The notes beneath the pieces are model-generated. The model was not told the origin of the DNA. It saw nothing but the letters and a program-made list of their open reading frames with translations, and ran no database searches. From Acidimicrobiia bacterium (GTDB lineage: Bacteria; Actinomycetota; Acidimicrobiia; IMCC26256; PALSA-555), in the NCBI GenBank assembly GCA_040881685.1, contig JBBECS010000015.1:3736-67735 (forward strand): a DNA stretch of 64,000 nucleotides. The letters are read 5' to 3'. The translations under genes and the position numbers were made by a program. Below are positions 48-49,764 of this stretch, one piece after another (within the stretch, counting starts at the first letter, position 1; each line of letters starts with the position of its first letter).

Positions 48-54
48 TTCCGGA

Positions 55-150
55 GGCTACCGACCGCGGCGCAGGCACCGTGCGCCGCAGGTAGCCGTTC
101 GCCGAAGTGGAGCGGAGCGGCCCGGCGCGAAGCGCCGAGAGCGGGAAGAG
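55..150 (+). repeat. structured repeat copy D (long hairpin 55-96, then GAGCGG / CGGCGC-GAA-GCGCCG / GAGCGGGAAG)
   Basis: GGCTACC(55-61) pairs with GGTAGCC(90-96), and GCGGCGCA(66-73) pairs with TGCGCCGC(81-88). The 30-nt core 115-144 is identical to 27080-27109. The element ends about 20 nt before the GTG at 173. Confidence 0.75.
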
Positions 151-3233: not shown

Positions 3234-4398
3234 CGCTGCTATGGGGTGGCGCCCGTAGGGACCAGGTGCTGTCGGTGTTGTCGATGACCTCGTAGCCGCG
3301 GTGGGTGATGAGGTCGTGGTGTTCGGGGCACACGTCGCCGAGGACCCGGTAGCTGGTGATTCGGTTGTCGGCGTAGCCGAGGGTGTGGTGGCGTTCGGTG
3401 GCGCGAGTGTGGTCGCAGTCGCGGATCTTGCAGACGCCGCCGTCACGTTCGTCGATGGCGATTTTCAACGCCTTGGGGACGTGACGGGTCGTGCTCACGA
3501 CGCTCTGGACGTCGACACCGTCGGTGATCACCAGCTCCAATAAGCCGTGCGACAGCACCTCTCGGGCGTAGTCGACGGGGACGGGCCCGACGCCGGGGAT
3601 CTCGCAGACGTCTTCGACCCCGTCGGCGGGACGGTCGAGGAGCTTGTCGAGGCCGACGCGTACGCGCACCACGGGCTTCGTGCTCGCCGGGACCTGCGCG
3701 CCGCGGGCCAGGGCGACGAGCGCGTCGAATCTGTACGCGGCCAGGGGTTGGTGCTCTCCCGTCTTCCGGGCGGCTTCGAAGGCTGCGCGGGCGAGTGGTT
3801 CGAGTGCTTCGAAGAGATCGGTGACCTCTTCGGTAGGACCCGAGAACGAGCCGTGGGTCGCGAAGCCGCGGGCCCAGCCGGCCAGGTGGCGTTCGTCGCG
3901 GGCGATCTTGCGGAGACGGTCCTCGTCGGACGCTGCCGTCACCACACGTTCCTTTGCTGCTCGAAGCTCCCGGAAGCCACGCTTGGTGGCTCGCAGCATC
4001 CGGCCTTCTGATGCAGGGTCGACCGACGCGGCTGCGGTGACCTGCGCCGCCTGCGCCAATGACACTTCCCCGGCGCGCAGCTTCTCGGCAGTTGTCGGGA
4101 GGTCGACCAGGCGATCGGCGGTGGTGAGCGTCTCGCGGGCGGCGTGCTCCGACGTACCGGTCACGTTGGCGAACCACTGCTCCGGCGACACCGCGTGTGA
4201 TGCGTTGCGCCAGGCGCCGGTGTCGACCGCGCGCTTGGCATGCAGCATCGTAATCGTCTGGGCGATCTTGACGATGTCGGCACTGACCTGCGCACACGAG
4301 ACCGCGTCCGCGCCTGCGTAGCAATCGGCATCAAGTGTCGCCGAGTACTCCTGCAGTCCGTCGCGGATGTCGACCAACGCGCTCATGACGTGCAGCAT
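3226..4398 (-). CDS. DUF222 + HNH endonuclease domain protein (REP13E12-like)
   Basis: The N-terminal helical region reads LHAKRAVDTGAWR..AERLVDLPTTAEKLRAGEVSLAQAAQV. The C-terminal HNH region reads CKIRDCDHTRATERHHTLGYADN...CPEHHDLITH. The alternative start ATG is at 4386. Confidence 0.85.
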   Translation of the reverse strand: MLHVMSALVDIRDGLQEYSATLDADCYAGADAVSCAQVSADIVKIAQTITMLHAKRAVDTGAWRNASHAVSPEQWFANVTGTSEHAARETLTTADRLVDLPTTAEKLRAGEVSLAQAAQVTAAASVDPASEGRMLRATKRGFRELRAAKERVVTAASDEDRLRKIARDERHLAGWARGFATHGSFSGPTEEVTDLFEALEPLARAAFEAARKTGEHQPLAAYRFDALVALARGAQVPASTKPVVRVRVGLDKLLDRPADGVEDVCEIPGVGPVPVDYAREVLSHGLLELVITDGVDVQSVVSTTRHVPKALKIAIDERDGGVCKIRDCDHTRATERHHTLGYADNRITSYRVLGDVCPEHHDLITHRGYEVIDNTDSTWSLRAPPHSSAA

Positions 4399-19646: not shown

Positions 19647-19700
19647 GCAGGCGAGCGCCCGGAGGCCCGCCGGGTATCCCGGCGGCGAGCGAGCGCGACC
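19647..19700 (+). repeat. structured repeat copy A
   Basis: GCAGGCGAGCGCCC..CGCCGGG-TAT-CCCGGCG-GCGAGCGAGCGCGACC, with the hairpin at 19668-19684. It lies 40 nt upstream of the next gene start. Confidence 0.7.
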
Positions 19701-26729: not shown

Positions 26730-27134
26730 ATGAGTGTCGTGCGCATCAATGCCATCAGTGTCCCCACCGAACGCGCCGAGGAGCTCGAACGCAGGTTCGC
26801 CGCTCGGGCGGGGGAGGTGTCGGGTTCGCCCGGGTTCGAGGCTTTCGAGCTCCTGCGGCCCAGCGACGAGCGCGATGTGTACCTCGTGTACACCCGCTGG
26901 AGGTCCGAGGAGGACTTCAACGCGTGGGTGAGCAGCCCGGCATTCGAGCACGGTCACCGAGCGCACGCGACCGAGGGGCCGGTCACCAGCCACAGCGAGC
27001 TGTGGTCCTTCGAGGTGATCCAGCACGAGGAGGCGAGCGACCGTGGGACGGGTACCCCGGACCGCAGCGAGCCGGGGCCAGAGCGGCCCGGCGCGAAGCG
27101 CCGAGAGCGGAATCAGGAGTCGGCCGCGGGCTGA
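26730..27134 (+). CDS. heme-degrading monooxygenase-like ABM domain protein (MhuD/IsdG-like) with a repeat-derived C-terminal tail
   Basis: MSVVRINAISVP..ELERRFA.RAG.V..SPGF..FELLRP......YLVYTRW.SEEDF.AW is close to my memory of MhuD. The last roughly 30 residues (..PDRSEPGPERPGAKRRERNQESAAG) are encoded by repeat copy E. Confidence 0.8.
   Translation: MSVVRINAISVPTERAEELERRFAARAGEVSGSPGFEAFELLRPSDERDVYLVYTRWRSEEDFNAWVSSPAFEHGHRAHATEGPVTSHSELWSFEVIQHEEASDRGTGTPDRSEPGPERPGAKRRERNQESAAG
27044..27110 (+). repeat. structured repeat copy E (inside the 3' end of the mhuD-like ORF)
   Basis: GGGACGGG-TAC-CCCGGACC, then GCAGCGAGCCGGGGCCAGAGCGG, CGGCGC-GAA-GCGCCG (27088-27102) and GAGAGCGGA. Positions 27080-27109 are identical to 115-144. 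Confidence 0.75.
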
Positions 27135-29622: not shown

Positions 29623-29648
29623 TGCGGCGCCGGAGGCGCTGGCCAGGG

Positions 29649-29693
29649 AGAGAGCGACCGCGGCGCACGTATCGTGCGTCGCAGTGAGCGACC
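29649..29693 (+). repeat. structured repeat copy M (direct repeat - hairpin - direct repeat)
   Basis: AGAGCGACC, then GCGGCGCACG-TAT-CGTGCGTCGC (29660-29682, one G-T pair), then AGTGAGCGACC. It lies between the convergent PRTase and pckG ends. Confidence 0.75.
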
Positions 29694-32301: not shown

Positions 32302-32331
32302 GACAGATTCCTCGCAAACTCGGGGGACAGG

Positions 32332-32377
32332 AGCGAGCGACCGCGAGTCGGGTATCCCGGCTCGCAGCGAGCGACCC
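32332..32377 (+). repeat. structured repeat copy B (direct repeat - hairpin - direct repeat)
   Basis: AGCGAGCGACC, then GCGAGTCGGG-TAT-CCCGGCTCGC (32343-32365, one T-G pair), then AGCGAGCGACCC. It lies in the divergent rpmB/DAK2 intergenic region. Confidence 0.8.
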
Positions 32378-34153: not shown

Positions 34154-36358
34154 GTGAATGAGCGCGTCGCGGCGGGGATCACCTTGCGCGAGCTGCGAGA
34201 CAAGCCTGCGTCCGACCTGCGCGCGGTGGGTTCGAAGTTGGCGACCCGGCTCGAGGCGATGGAACTCATGAGCGTGCTCGACCTGCTCGAGCACTACCCG
34301 CGTCGGTATCACGACCGCACCAAGGTCCAGGACATCGCCGAGCTGGCGATCGGCGAGGAGGCGACGGTCACGGGTGAGGTGAAGAAGGTCTCGGTGCGTC
34401 GACCGCGCAACCGCCGCCCCTTGGTGGAGATGGAGGTGTTCGACGGCACCTCCTACCTGCGGCTCACGTTCTTCAACCAGGAGTACCGGGCGAAAATCAC
34501 GGAAGGCACCGAGATCTCGGTCTTCGGCAAGGTCGACCTGTATCGCGGCCGGCGTCAGATGGTGAACCCCGCGCTCGACGTGCTCGGCAATCCCGGCGAG
34601 CAGACGACCGGCGTCCTGCTCCCCGTGTACCCCCAGTCGGGGAAGGCGGGTGTGCAGACGTGGGAGCTCCGGAAGGTTGCCGCGGAGCTGCTCCAGCGCG
34701 TTCGTGCTCGCGGGTTCGCCGACCCGGTTGATGTGGGCGTGCTTCGAGCGCGCGGCCTCGTCGATCGAACGACCGCCTATTCGGCGATCCACCGCCCTGA
34801 GACCTTGGGCGAAGTCGAGGTCGCCAAGGCGCGCCTCACGTTCGACGAGTTCCTCCGCATGCAGGTGGGCCTGGTCGCGCGCAAGCGTGCGCTCGAGCGC
34901 GATCGAAGTGGCATCGAGCATCAGGTCGACGGTCCGCTCGTCCCGGCGTTCCACGCCGCGCTCCCGTTCCCGTTGACTGACGACCAGCAGCGCGCGATCG
35001 CCGAGATCGGCCAGGACATGGCCGCGCCTGCGCCGATGCACCGGCTGCTCCAAGGCGAGGTGGGATCGGGCAAGACCGTGGTGGCGCTCACCGCGCTCCT
35101 GATGGCCGTGCAAGGCGGCTACCAAGGCGCGTTCATGGCGCCGACGGAGGTGCTCGCCGAGCAGCACGACCTCACGTTGCGATCGCTGCTCGACGGCCTG
35201 CACGTCCCGGCCGAGGGCAGCCTGCTGGGCGACCGGCCCATCGGCGTCGCCCTGCTCACCAACCGCACCGCGGCCGCCGAACGGCGCCGCATCGCCGACG
35301 GCTTGCGCTCGGGAGAGATCGACATCCTCGTCGGCACGCACGCGCTGATCTACGAGGGGGTCGAGTTCGCGCGCCTCGGCGTAGCGGTGGTCGACGAGCA
35401 GCACCGGTTCGGCGTCGAGCAACGCGACCTGCTGCGCGGAAAAGGTCCGCGGCGAGCGTCCCAAGGGGCGGCGCCGGGTATCCCGGCGCCTAGCGAGCCT
35501 GCCGAATACGGGGGATCCGACGTGCTCGTGATGACAGCGACGCCGATCCCACGGACGGCGGCGATGCTCATCTACGGCGACCTGGACCGCTCCGAGCTGC
35601 GCAGTCTCCCGGCCGGCCGTTCGCCGATCACCACCGAGATCGTGGGCCCGATGCCGATGGAGCGCACGCCGGTCTACGAGCGCCTGCGCGCCGAGGTCGA
35701 CGCCGGCCGCCAGGCCTACGTCGTGTGCCCGCTCGTGGAGGGTTCCGAGAAGCTCGAGGCCAAAGCGGCGACCGAGGAACACGCGCGGCTCGCGGCCGAA
35801 GAGCTTGCAGGGTTGCGCCTCGGCCTGCTGCACGGGCAGATGCCGTCGCGAGACAAGGAAGCGATGATGACGCGCTTCCGAGCGCACGAGATCGATGTGC
35901 TCGTCGCCACCACCGTGGTCGAGGTCGGAGTTGATGTGCCGAACGCGACCGTGATGATCGTCGAAGATGCTGATCGCTTCGGGCTCCTCCAGCTCCACCA
36001 GCTGCGCGGTCGCATCGGTCGCGGCGCGCACCGTTCGTGGTGCTATCTGCTCGCCGATCCGGTCACGAACGAAGCCAAGGCGCGACTCCAGGCGATGGTC
36101 AACTCCTCCGACGGCTTCGAGCTCGCGGAGCGCGACCTCGAGATCCGCGGCGAGGGCGCGGTGTTCGGCGAGCGGCAGTCGGGCTGGAGCGACCTCAAGC
36201 TCGGTCGCCTCCCGCGCGACGAGCCGATCGTGATGGAGGCCCGCGCCGTGGCCGAGTCCATCCTCGGCGCCGACCCAGAGCTCGAACGACATCCGCAGCT
36301 GCGTGAAGAGGTCGAGGATCTGCTCGGCGACGCGGTCGAGTTCCTCTTCAAGAGCTGA
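34154..36358 (+). CDS. recG: ATP-dependent DNA helicase RecG (carrying an in-frame repeat insertion)
   Basis: Wedge/OB N-terminus, then LLQGEVGSGKTVVA, VVDEQHRFGV, LVMTATPIPRT, HGQMPSRDKE and LHQLRGRIGRG. About 18-20 extra residues lie between the DEQH box and MTATPIPRT. Confidence 0.95.
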   Translation: MNERVAAGITLRELRDKPASDLRAVGSKLATRLEAMELMSVLDLLEHYPRRYHDRTKVQDIAELAIGEEATVTGEVKKVSVRRPRNRRPLVEMEVFDGTSYLRLTFFNQEYRAKITEGTEISVFGKVDLYRGRRQMVNPALDVLGNPGEQTTGVLLPVYPQSGKAGVQTWELRKVAAELLQRVRARGFADPVDVGVLRARGLVDRTTAYSAIHRPETLGEVEVAKARLTFDEFLRMQVGLVARKRALERDRSGIEHQVDGPLVPAFHAALPFPLTDDQQRAIAEIGQDMAAPAPMHRLLQGEVGSGKTVVALTALLMAVQGGYQGAFMAPTEVLAEQHDLTLRSLLDGLHVPAEGSLLGDRPIGVALLTNRTAAAERRRIADGLRSGEIDILVGTHALIYEGVEFARLGVAVVDEQHRFGVEQRDLLRGKGPRRASQGAAPGIPAPSEPAEYGGSDVLVMTATPIPRTAAMLIYGDLDRSELRSLPAGRSPITTEIVGPMPMERTPVYERLRAEVDAGRQAYVVCPLVEGSEKLEAKAATEEHARLAAEELAGLRLGLLHGQMPSRDKEAMMTRFRAHEIDVLVATTVVEVGVDVPNATVMIVEDADRFGLLQLHQLRGRIGRGAHRSWCYLLADPVTNEAKARLQAMVNSSDGFELAERDLEIRGEGAVFGERQSGWSDLKLGRLPRDEPIVMEARAVAESILGADPELERHPQLREEVEDLLGDAVEFLFKS
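35449..35503 (+). repeat. structured repeat copy C, in frame inside recG
   Basis: GCGGCGAGCGTCCCAAGG, then GGCGCCGGG-TAT-CCCGGCGCC (35470-35490, perfect 9-bp stem), then TAGCGAGCCTGCC. It is translated as RRASQGAAPGIPAPSEPA. Confidence 0.75.
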
Positions 36359-36939: not shown

Positions 36940-37437
36940 GTGGCAACGGCGCTCTGCCCGGGCTCCTTCGATCCCGTCACCAACGGGCACCTCGACATCA
37001 TCGAACGCACGGCGCGGCACTTCGACACGGTGATCGTCGCGGTCATCCGCAACCCGCAGAAGTCCCAGTCGCTCTTCACCCTCGAAGAGCGCCAGGAGAT
37101 GCTGCACGAGGTGACCGCCCACCTGTCCAACATCAAGATCGAGTTCTTCAAGGGGTTGCTCGTCGAGTTCGCCAAGGACCACGGCGCGTCGGCCATCGTC
37201 AAGGGGCTGCGGGCCATCTCCGACTTCGACTACGAGCTCCAGATGGCGCAGATGAACCAGAGCCTGTCGGGCATCGACACCTTCTTCATCTCCACGAGCC
37301 CGCAGTACTCGTTCCTCTCGTCGAGCCTCGTGCGCGAGGTGGCGAAGTTCGGTGGCGACGTGTCGAGCATGGTTCCCGCCGTCGTCGCGAAGCGGCTCGA
37401 CGCCCGCTTCGGGGGGCCCAGCCGCGACAAGGCATGA
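36940..37437 (+). CDS. coaD: phosphopantetheine adenylyltransferase
   Basis: ALCPGSFDPVTNGHLDIIERTA and GLRAISDFDYELQMAQMN. Confidence 0.95.
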   Translation: MATALCPGSFDPVTNGHLDIIERTARHFDTVIVAVIRNPQKSQSLFTLEERQEMLHEVTAHLSNIKIEFFKGLLVEFAKDHGASAIVKGLRAISDFDYELQMAQMNQSLSGIDTFFISTSPQYSFLSSSLVREVAKFGGDVSSMVPAVVAKRLDARFGGPSRDKA

Positions 37438-37523
37438 GCCGAGCATTCGCGCCGCAGGTACCCTGCGGCGCACGAGGCGGGGCCTCAGCGGCCCGGCGCG
37501 AAGCGCCAGGAGCGGGAAGGTGA
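37434..37523 (+). repeat. structured repeat copy F, also a 29-codon intercistronic mini-ORF
   Basis: The ATG at 37434 overlaps the coaD TGA (ATGA). The ORF MSRAFAPQVPCGARGGASAARREAPGAGR ends at TGA 37521-23, which overlaps GTG 37520 of the next gene (GTGA). Hairpin 1 is GCGCCGCAGG-TAC-CCTGCGGCGC (37449-71) and hairpin 2 is CGGCGC-GAA-GCGCC (37494-37507). Confidence 0.75.
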
Positions 37524-42246: not shown

Positions 42247-42329
42247 AGAGCGAGCGCTCGCGTCGCAGGTACCCTGCGGCGCAGCGAGCGGGGCCCGAGC
42301 GGCCCGGCCCGCAGGGCCGAGAGCGGGAC
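42247..42329 (+). repeat. structured repeat copy G, abutting the smc start
   Basis: AGAGCGAGCGCTC, GCGTCGCAGG-TAC-CCTGCGGCGC (42260-82, one T-G pair), AGCGAGCGGGGCCCGAGCGG, CGGCCC-GCA-GGGCCG (42305-19), AGAGCGGGAC. An open frame through it ends at TGA 42330-32, overlapping the smc ATG at 42332. Confidence 0.8.
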
Positions 42330-49411: not shown

Positions 49412-49764
49412 TCGACGAAGACGACGACAACATCGGCAACCGGATCGACGACAACGAGTTCGAGGACGACGACGACGACCTCGACGACGACGTCGAGATC
49501 GGCGCCGAAGGTAACCGCATCACCGGCACGCGCGCACGCGCGGTCGTCGAGCACGTGGCCCGCTCGTTGGCGGACGACCCCGACGCGATTGAGGTCGACC
49601 TCTCGGAGCGCCGCGGCGAGGTCATGTTGCTCGTGCACGCCAACCCTGACGACATGGGCAGGCTCATCGGCCGTCGGGGACGGGTCATCCAGGCGATGCG
49701 CCAGGTGGCGCGCGCCGCGGGCGCGGCCGAAGGCATCAAGGCGACGGTCGACGTCGCGGAGTAG
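49408..49764 (+). CDS. KH-domain RNA-binding protein (YlqC-like) with an acidic N-terminal extension
   Basis: The C-terminal LLVHANPDDMGRLIGRRGRVIQAMRQVARAA is a KH GXXG motif. The first roughly 35 residues are almost all D/E/N. The ATG overlaps the rpsP TGA (ATGA). Confidence 0.85.
   Translation: MIDEDDDNIGNRIDDNEFEDDDDDLDDDVEIGAEGNRITGTRARAVVEHVARSLADDPDAIEVDLSERRGEVMLLVHANPDDMGRLIGRRGRVIQAMRQVARAAGAAEGIKATVDVAE

Follow-up and report, generated by a model that had tools for sequence, protein, structure and literature searches.

Intragenic copies of repetitive extragenic palindromic (REP) sequences have been surveyed across bacterial genomes by Di Nocera et al. (2013; PMC3733652), who describe GC-rich stem-loops that are mostly extragenic, often lying just downstream of genes, and some of which sit in frame within coding sequences, where they encode ~8-30 residues. 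Many of the genes hit belong to replication and repair (uvrABCD, recBCD, polA, dnaE2), and in two Xanthomonas species the insertions in recB fall at roughly one position (PMC3733652). Here we describe a 64,000-nucleotide stretch of contig JBBECS010000015.1 from an Acidimicrobiia bacterium (hereafter the window), in which recG, the gene for the ATP-dependent DNA helicase RecG, carries a hairpin repeat in frame between two of its helicase motifs. Very probably, one unit of a dispersed, normally extragenic, REP-like palindromic element has integrated into recG and is translated there as a tolerated loop. An in-frame intragenic insertion of a REP-like element is a known phenomenon; what is new is the apparently undescribed repeat family and its recurrent hits at one recG codon. 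The word "Actinobacteria" is absent from the main text of the intragenic REP survey, the host of the present element being a member of the Acidimicrobiia, and recG has no occurrence in the text and supplements of that survey (PMC3733652).

The Acidimicrobiia element resembles REPs in being a short GC-rich palindrome with many, mainly extragenic copies (eight in 64 kb, 48 in related loci), and single units, tandem groups, and inverted dimers are found in both. It differs from REPs of the GTAG/CGTC superfamilies, as it has no conserved tetranucleotide at the foot of the stem; CGTC and GTAG appear only sporadically in the variable stems and flanks. It also differs in which parts are kept, conserving direct GCGAGCG-type flanks and the centre of the loop while the stem varies. 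A further likeness is to the system of REP doublets forming hairpins and REP-associated tyrosine transposases (REPIN/RAYT; Bertels and Rainey 2011, PMC3116915), in which a short hairpin-repeat population likewise combines vertical persistence with copy turnover between close relatives. Some inverted pairs ~100-140 nt apart occur in the Acidimicrobiia loci as well, for example 7661(+)/7767(-) in locus L020 and 19563(-)/19701(+) in L010. Most Acidimicrobiia copies, however, are singletons or tandem direct units rather than inverted doublets, and all eight copies in the window have one orientation. In-frame MITEs (miniature transposable elements with inverted repeats; PMC10969869, PMC2229807) are similar in being small, non-autonomous, and readable within coding sequence. 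Unlike MITEs, the Acidimicrobiia element lacks terminal inverted repeats of 15-30 bp, its flanks being direct (GCGAGCG ... AGCGAGC); it shows no clear or consistent target-site duplication when filled and empty recG sites are compared; and its 63-74 nt unit is at or below the lower MITE size limit.

Palindromic repeats lying in frame within genes have also been documented as the Rickettsia palindromic elements (RPEs; Ogata et al. 2000, 2002, cited in PMC3733652). RPEs resemble the recG insert in leaving the host gene functional and being read through as an extra peptide (recG encodes an intact 734-aa protein), and differ from it in being AT-rich, in forming unrelated sequence families, and in hitting many genes of reduced intracellular genomes. 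The Acidimicrobiia unit is 63-74 nt long and ~80% G+C, and recG is its sole internal target in the regions examined, apart from a C-terminal case in an antibiotic biosynthesis monooxygenase (ABM)-like gene. RPEs measure ~100-150 bp, and the segments derived from them are believed to lie on protein surfaces.

A hairpin-repeat unit in the RecG linker

The host gene recG (34154..36358, plus strand) is an open reading frame (ORF) of 734 aa whose product has all the features of RecG membership, namely the wedge domain, superfamily 2 (SF2) motifs I-VI including DEQH and TATPIPRT, and the C-terminal domain. The protein is 100% identical to an Acidimicrobiia RecG from an NCBI metagenome-assembled genome (MAG), contains the Pfam domains RecG_wedge, DEAD, Helicase_C, and RecG_dom3_C, and matches Thermotoga maritima RecG (PDB 1GM5) with a phmmer E of 6.7e-131; 1gm5_A is also its best Foldseek match. 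The reading frame is continuous through the insert, and the sequence on both sides is recG sequence collinear with orthologs. The first-pass annotation, made from the letters of the window, had described an intact frame and a helicase that probably tolerates the loop, and the 734-aa ORF with all motifs present agrees with this.

From motif II (VVDEQHRFGV) to motif III (MTATPIPRT), the intervening residues are EQRDLLRGKG-PRRASQGAAPGIPAPSEPAEYGGS-DVLV, and the stretch from DEQHRFGV to MTATPIPRT comprises 38 residues versus 17 in most relatives. The 17-residue linker, of the form EQRDLLRGKGxEPDVLV, is found in the nearest ortholog (P0002, 89% identity), in P0003 and P0004 (83%), and in ~70% of ~200 orthologs, made up of the 120 closest proteins and 80 recG loci of GTDB species representatives. 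T. maritima RecG also has 17 residues there, with a 21-residue alignment gap precisely at the insert point, and E. coli RecG (9WM0) has 21 residues in the same linker. The 17-residue linker of the nearest relatives thus delimits an excess of 21 codons, slightly more than the 18-20 extra residues first estimated. Codon comparison with locus L001 (P0002) and other orthologs, together with the BLASTN gap against L001 and L002 and the gap in 1GM5, places the inserted unit at 35447..35509 on the plus strand (63 nt, 21 codons, encoding the peptide PRRASQGAAPGIPAPSEPAEY). These limits are uncertain by up to 9 nt because a diverged stretch of 72 nt (35447-35518) replaces 9 nt (CAC GAA CCC) of the nearest ortholog, L001, which leaves 63 nt (21 codons) as the net gain. 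The codon usage had been noted as unusual, and it is: 8 of the 25 codons at 35444-35518 end in A or T versus 11.8% in the rest of recG (binomial P = 0.0065), a density with a comparable value at just one other place in the gene.

A neighbour-joining tree of 118 RecG proteins, built with the linker masked, joins the window protein (P0001) to P0002 with 100% bootstrap and nests the pair among 17-residue sequences. By this comparison the insert appears to be derived, gained in the window lineage, and without counterpart in the closest orthologs. The in-frame repeat insertion between DEQH and MTATPIPRT that the first-pass annotation proposed therefore stands, the sequence being as described and absent from the closest orthologs. 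The converse case, an ancestral loop of the same length lacking the repeat signature, is not what the orthologs show, because P0001 and P0002 are nested among 17-residue sequences; the orthologs with long loops have the same repeat in their DNA. One insert-less protein in the 90% cluster of P0001, P0121, was considered as a within-species empty allele and rejected, as it belongs to the lineage of P0002 and P0010 (97.9% and 99.7% identity).

The repeat unit is ~63-66 nt long, a multiple of three, and free of stop codons, and is laid out as GGCGAGCGTCCC, a small stem, a GC-rich stem of 9-11 bp centred on GGGTAYCCC, and then AGCGAGC. In recG, alignments and metagenome copies locate the left flank motif GCGAGCG at 35452..35458 (plus strand, as are the other parts), within GCGGCGAGCGTCCC, the signature of the long subfamily. 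A palindrome scan places the main hairpin at 35470..35490, with a perfect 9-bp stem and a 3-nt loop (GGCGCCGGG-TAT-CCCGGCGCC, with GGGTATCCC at its centre) translated as APGIPAP, and alignments place the right flank motif AGCGAGC at 35492..35498. The flank signature and 9-bp stem reported earlier for the extra DNA are thus present, and their assignment to a family can be put in numbers. A covariance model (R1), built from the seven non-recG copies of the window only (10-bp stem, 92.9% of cells paired, six pairs with changes on both sides), matches recG at 35449..35502 on the plus strand with 35.9 bits (E = 3.4e-4 in a scan of 166 kb, and E = 1.3e-4 when the window is scanned unfiltered). With filters off, the scan of the window returns eight family members at or above 35.9 bits, the best other match scoring 16.4 bits. 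The insert also aligns with a unit on the unrelated metagenome contig L090 at 44/50 identity (88%), with a score of 65 versus a shuffle maximum of 29. The recG insert belongs to the hairpin repeat family of the window; it is one long-subfamily unit, with both flanks, the small stem, and the GGGTAYCCC hairpin in the correct order.

Two subfamilies can be distinguished. The short form is 47 nt long (GGAGCGAGCGNCC, hairpin, AGCGAGCGACC) and in the window is often followed on its 3' side by a second module, GGGGCCnGAGCGGCCCGGCGCGAAGCGCCGAGAGCGGGA; the long form measures 63-74 nt (GGAGCGGCGAGCGTCCC-GNAG-GGCG, hairpin, GAGCGAGCGCGACCATCAAGAGGAGC) and is found as two units in tandem in L090 (66 nt), L107 (70 nt), and L103 (74 nt). 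Perfect palindromes with a stem of at least 8 bp and a loop of 3-5 nt number about a dozen in the 64-kb window, and the recG palindrome, searched with up to 3 mismatches, has 3 matches versus 0.01 expected. Family-wide, pairing holds in 95.6% of the stem cells of 48 copies, taken from the window and from related loci, versus 31-50% when the 3' partners are slid by 1-3 columns, and 9 of 10 stem pairs show double (both-side) changes; the stem sequence therefore varies between copies while the arms stay complementary, and the flanks and the GGGTAYCCC centre are the constant parts. The main hairpin of recG has an energy of -19.4 kcal/mol as RNA. Since the 75-nt region folds no better than GC-matched shuffles (z = -1.35 as RNA, -0.85 as DNA), the structural case rests on the exact palindrome and the family covariation rather than on energy. 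A scan of the whole window at Rfam gathering thresholds gave no match, and we found no paper describing such a repeat in Acidimicrobiia; this hairpin family is apparently an undescribed, REP-like one.

In an AlphaFold2 model of the window RecG (mean predicted local distance difference test (pLDDT) score 79.7), residues 433-452 are coil with pLDDT below 50, preceded by a helix (421-428) and followed by the strand (456-461) that leads to motif III. The insert site, which separates motif II from motif III, belongs to RecA-like domain 1 and lies where a beta strand has its N-terminal end; in a RecA-like fold we take this end to be on the sheet edge that faces away from the nucleotide-binding motifs. 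The view that the insert is a predicted disordered loop in a permissive turn, which would be how it is tolerated, is well supported. The first-pass annotation had suggested a probably tolerated surface loop and raised a position between the two RecA-like lobes as a point to check; the loop fits the predicted disorder, and the site is within domain 1 rather than between the lobes. No other part of RecG varies as much in length in this group as the linker (17 to 59 aa in the orthologs), and the only other indel-prone internal spot is near residues 147-150.

Recurrence at one recG codon

Comparison of the orthologous loci shows the same element at the same recG codon in at least four other lineages. 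The net gain is 66 nt in L003/L022 (P0040) and in L004 (P0042), 69 nt in L006 (P0070), where the stem is weakened, and 63 nt in L007 (P0077) and in L008/L026 (P0103); L005/L021 (P0044) contains two tandem 63-nt units and has a 59-aa linker. The hairpin is in an identical reading frame in all forward recG copies (PG[IT]P...SEPA), and the left flank is shifted by one base between the window, L003, and L004 (RRAS) versus L006-L008 (GERP). In L009 (P0119), the element is reverse-complemented at the same site, with a reverse-complement score of 46 versus a shuffle maximum of 30. The reverse orientation of the L009 copy makes a minimum of two integrations certain. Filled genes have empty sisters in several places of the tree, with bootstrap support of 100% for P0042 with P0051, 99% for P0044 with P0045 and P0047, 82% for P0070 with P0114, and 100% for P0077 with P0111 and P0116. 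The insert has been retained in frame over long divergence, 15-20% at the nucleotide level (L003 versus L004, L007 versus L008). For the 40-aa linker of L056, considered as another copy, the alignment score is not above those of shuffles.

The window recG is ~75% identical to its filled orthologs, with no local rise around the insert. We therefore rejected import of the window insert by recombination and count the insertion as an independent and fairly recent gain. A closer pair is formed by L004 (filled, 3750-3866) and L121 (empty), whose recG genes are 94.6% identical and differ by a 66-nt indel with 11 synonymous mismatches within ~32 nt around it; the empty allele of L121 has a GAC codon that is missing from the filled L004. 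Judged from these alleles, the pattern looks like short-tract exchange of old alleles rather than clean excision.

Outside recG, the family keeps largely to the spaces between genes. Seven of the eight window copies are extragenic or at gene ends, and when metagenome contigs were scanned for the exact pattern, 29 of them yielded a total of 33 matches, two of these matches being the recG copies of L003 and L004; the remaining matches (29 or more of the 33) lie between genes or directly upstream or downstream of them. Across 89 recG neighbourhoods (up to ~22 kb), convincing internal copies are found in recG alone, all at the same linker.

In the integration that we favour, the unit would have entered at the end of the helix that comes after motif II (DEQH), behind its terminal Gly-Lys-Gly, and, because its length is a multiple of three and it contains no stop codon, would be read through as a 21-residue peptide rich in Pro, Gly, Ala, and Ser. 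This peptide would take the place of a turn of three residues where the strand towards motif III (TATPIPRT) begins, leaving the helicase intact, and the insertion would be tolerated and essentially neutral for RecG. Because the linker is one of only two length-variable loops in RecG, we infer that recurrence at one codon would mainly reflect a selection filter, possibly joined by some target preference: insertions elsewhere in RecG would be lethal or deleterious, and the three-residue turn would be the most permissive place. The filter is the parsimonious reading of the site recurrence. The element itself may be mobilised in trans by a REP-type transposase, for example a RAYT or an IS200/IS605-like single-strand transposase.

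Several points weigh against this account. No transposase or other mobilising function was identified, the ORFs of the window not having been scanned for Y1 domains and no search having been made outside the window, and the element lacks the GTAG or CGTC tag that defines the REP superfamilies described so far. Surface exposure of the loop is deduced from low model confidence and secondary structure rather than from coordinates, and neutrality for RecG is an assumption. The stem is near-perfect in several recG copies, which could mean that the hairpin is under constraint instead of neutral. Nor does the selection filter explain why other genes of the 89 neighbourhoods, such as that for the 1000-aa SMC, have no internal copies; some preference for certain targets, or a tie to repair genes of the kind proposed for REPs (PMC3733652), may also be involved. 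Mimicry of the target was considered, as the empty recG site (GGCAAGGGC followed by GACGAGCCC) and other empty sites resemble the flanks or the tandem junction by eye, and is not supported: with a position weight matrix (PWM) of the flanks built without the recG copies, the empty site ranks ~28th-53rd of ~2190 positions in 60 empty recG genes, which is chance for a 41-nt zone. Divergence of the flanking codons between filled and empty alleles is not significantly raised (P = 0.17).

Alternatives to independent, tolerated insertions

The patchy distribution could instead stem from a single ancient insertion in ancestral Acidimicrobiia, followed by repeated loss or by exchange of filled and empty alleles through homologous recombination. 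Such a history would fit the facts that all forward copies are of the long subfamily and that the window, L003, and L004 share a register (CNG CGG CGA GCG TCC); the clustered mismatches around the L004/L121 indel would mark a short exchanged tract or old alleles, the intermediate linkers of one clade, for example GGGQSAQGEP and GRGASAGGAREP, look like scars, and loss is seen among extragenic copies too, the copy downstream of coaD being present in L011 and reduced to a remnant in L001. We nevertheless consider it unlikely. Dozens of 17-aa orthologs with a conserved xEP turn surround the window lineage in the tree, so that many exact restorations would be needed, and the opposite orientation in L009 demands a second integration in any case. 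A shift of 1 nt separates the left junction in L006, L007, and L008 from that in the window, L003, and L004. Exchange would have to operate between the window gene and filled orthologs that are ~75% identical to it, with no local rise at the insert, and homologous recombination is unlikely at ~75% identity. Finally, simple excision does not regenerate the GAC codon of the empty allele, which is absent from the filled ones. Improbable too, by a slightly wider measure, is a functional insertion, in which the hairpin (as RNA or DNA) or the peptide would have been recruited to tune recG translation, mRNA stability, or RecG activity. The recurrence at one codon and the in-frame retention across 15-20% nucleotide divergence are compatible with such a role, as are stems in recG that are perfect or nearly so (-13 to -20 kcal/mol), the standing of recG as the sole gene with an internal copy in the neighbourhoods examined, and the excess of intragenic REPs in repair genes reported in the literature (PMC3733652). 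Most close relatives, however, thrive without the insert; the peptide varies between lineages, with two registers and one reverse orientation, and is predicted to be disordered; copies have decayed in some lineages (the weakened stem of L006 and the doubtful L056); and the 75-nt region, with its z of -1.35, folds no better than GC-matched shuffles.

The loop might also be ancestral, or a local product of slippage or template switching on recG sequence, that resembles the repeat by chance. Loop length does vary in many lineages with G/D/P-rich inserts that lack the repeat signature, and GC-rich coding DNA readily yields GAGCG-like strings, many of which the flank PWM finds in recG. This explanation is nonetheless very improbable, and is effectively refuted by the R1 score, ~20 bits above background, and by the 88% identity over 50 nt to the unit on the unrelated contig L090; beyond these, the full set of flank motifs, small stem, and hairpin is present in the correct order, the insert is missing from the nearest orthologs, and the contexts of the extragenic copies exclude an origin from recG fragments. 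Repeats can cause misassembly in MAGs, and a chimeric join at the repeat, in assembly or binning, is the explanation to which we give the least credence. The recG DNA is identical, with 0 differences, in a 368-kb NCBI MAG contig and in an independent Logan assembly of SRR27977663, which refutes an artefact; the exact protein is on record on six contigs under several MAG accessions, and the continuous frame and collinear flanks speak against a join as well.

A more far-reaching proposal, which we hold to be improbable, is that the turn after Gly-Lys-Gly is a genuine integration hot spot, used repeatedly and in both orientations, and that the association of the element with recG is functional rather than accidental. 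If so, the hairpin or cruciform DNA could be a substrate of RecG, and RecG could be tuned by the loop or the mRNA hairpin so as to help the element persist or spread, which would give a mechanistic basis to the reported intragenic excess of REPs in repair genes. With integration of a tolerated unit, the reading that we prefer, the locus would provide a well-delimited case of non-coding selfish or structural DNA turned into protein sequence in a repair helicase of the essential class. Natural controls are at hand: filled and empty alleles whose DNA is up to 94.6% identical, a unit duplicated in tandem, a copy in reverse orientation, and decayed copies. The locus could therefore serve for work on how insertions are accommodated by proteins, on how REP-like elements choose their targets or survive in them, and on whether the preference for repair genes is real. 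The repeat family, built as flank, variable stem, GGGTAYCCC, and flank, occurs widely among uncultured Acidimicrobiia and will inflate or distort ORF calls in their MAGs.

Family copies elsewhere in the window and in related loci

The seven other copies of the window, all on the plus strand, were scored with R1. They include an extragenic short-subfamily copy at 53..99 (54.0 bits), a copy at 19648..19698 that is of the long-subfamily type and lies within a divergent intergenic region (42.6 bits, and by alignment), and a copy upstream of smc at 42247..42293 (61.7 bits). An extragenic copy at 29647..29693 (59.4 bits) adjoins the 3' end of a minus-strand PEPCK gene. The copy at 32330..32376 (62.8 bits) lies between the divergent rpmB and DAK2/FakA-like genes and, by synteny, has an orthologous copy in L002. 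Directly after the stop codon of coaD is the copy at 37436..37482 (54.2 bits), which was compared with L001 and L011, and the copy at 27030..27076 (59.1 bits) is in frame near the 3' end of the ABM-like gene, as judged from the ORF and from comparison with orthologs.

This ABM-like gene, a 134-aa ORF at 26730..27134 on the plus strand, contains the short hairpin and the second module in frame (27029-27115), five codons before its stop codon. The C-terminus of its product reads ..HEE-ASDRGTGTPDRSEPGPERPGAKRRERNQE-SAAG*, and orthologs in L010, L013, and L033 end in ..HEEARAG* or ..HEEAPAAE* without the insert. It is the second translated family copy of the window, of ~29 codons.

All eight window copies are on the plus strand whatever the direction of the neighbouring genes (two-sided chance ~0.008), and the cumulative GC skew climbs steadily across the window, which suggests that the whole of it lies on one replichore. 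A bias in orientation with respect to replication is characteristic of single-strand (IS200/IS605-type) transposition, but in related loci there are also copies on the minus strand and copies paired in inverted orientation.

Turnover of extragenic copies can be followed downstream of coaD. The copy there (37436-37517 in the window, with its adjoining sequence) is present in L011 (5331-5411), which is more distant than L001. After coaD in L001 (3313-3340), the nearer relative, there is a remnant, GCCGAGGATTCGCGCC, alone, corresponding to the left flank and the first bases of the stem. Extragenic copies are thus gained and lost as patchily as the recG copy.

The second module, GGGGCCnGAGCGGCCCGGCGCGAAGCGCCGAGAGCGG(G/A)A, is found at 102-144, 27068-27110, 37473-37515, and 42284-42326, has its own small GGCGC-GAA-GCGCC hairpin, and is always directly 3' of a short-subfamily hairpin, a composite arrangement like that of bacterial interspersed mosaic elements (BIMEs). 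Whole units are repeated in tandem with periods of 63, 66, 74, 70, 117, and 131 nt, respectively, in L005/L021 (4720-4896), L090 (1577-1690), L103 (5588-5709), L107 (1909-2028), L048 (17579-17751), and L004 (5921-6098). In L093 and L097, the 3' tail of a long unit (..ATGAAGAGGAGC and ..ATCAAGAGGAGC) is a few bases before a downstream ATG and resembles a ribosome-binding site.

The annotated N-terminal extensions of the RecG proteins P0040, P0074, P0082, and P0103 (for example VAAREGAERASERPRPR) resemble translated repeat DNA of the GAGCGAGCG type located 5' of the true start, and the hairpin family probably distorts start-codon calls in these MAGs. Eight loci with Acidimicrobiia-like recG (L012, L016, L020, L022, L042, L083, L085, and L088) come from records titled Bifidobacterium breve, Bifidobacteriaceae, or Burkholderiales; the GTDB representative MAGs so titled are probably mislabelled or mis-binned. 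Within the window, a low-complexity run of GAC/GAG codons, rich in Asp and Glu, at 49417-49510 dominates the generic direct-repeat families D1-D3 and is unrelated to the hairpin family.

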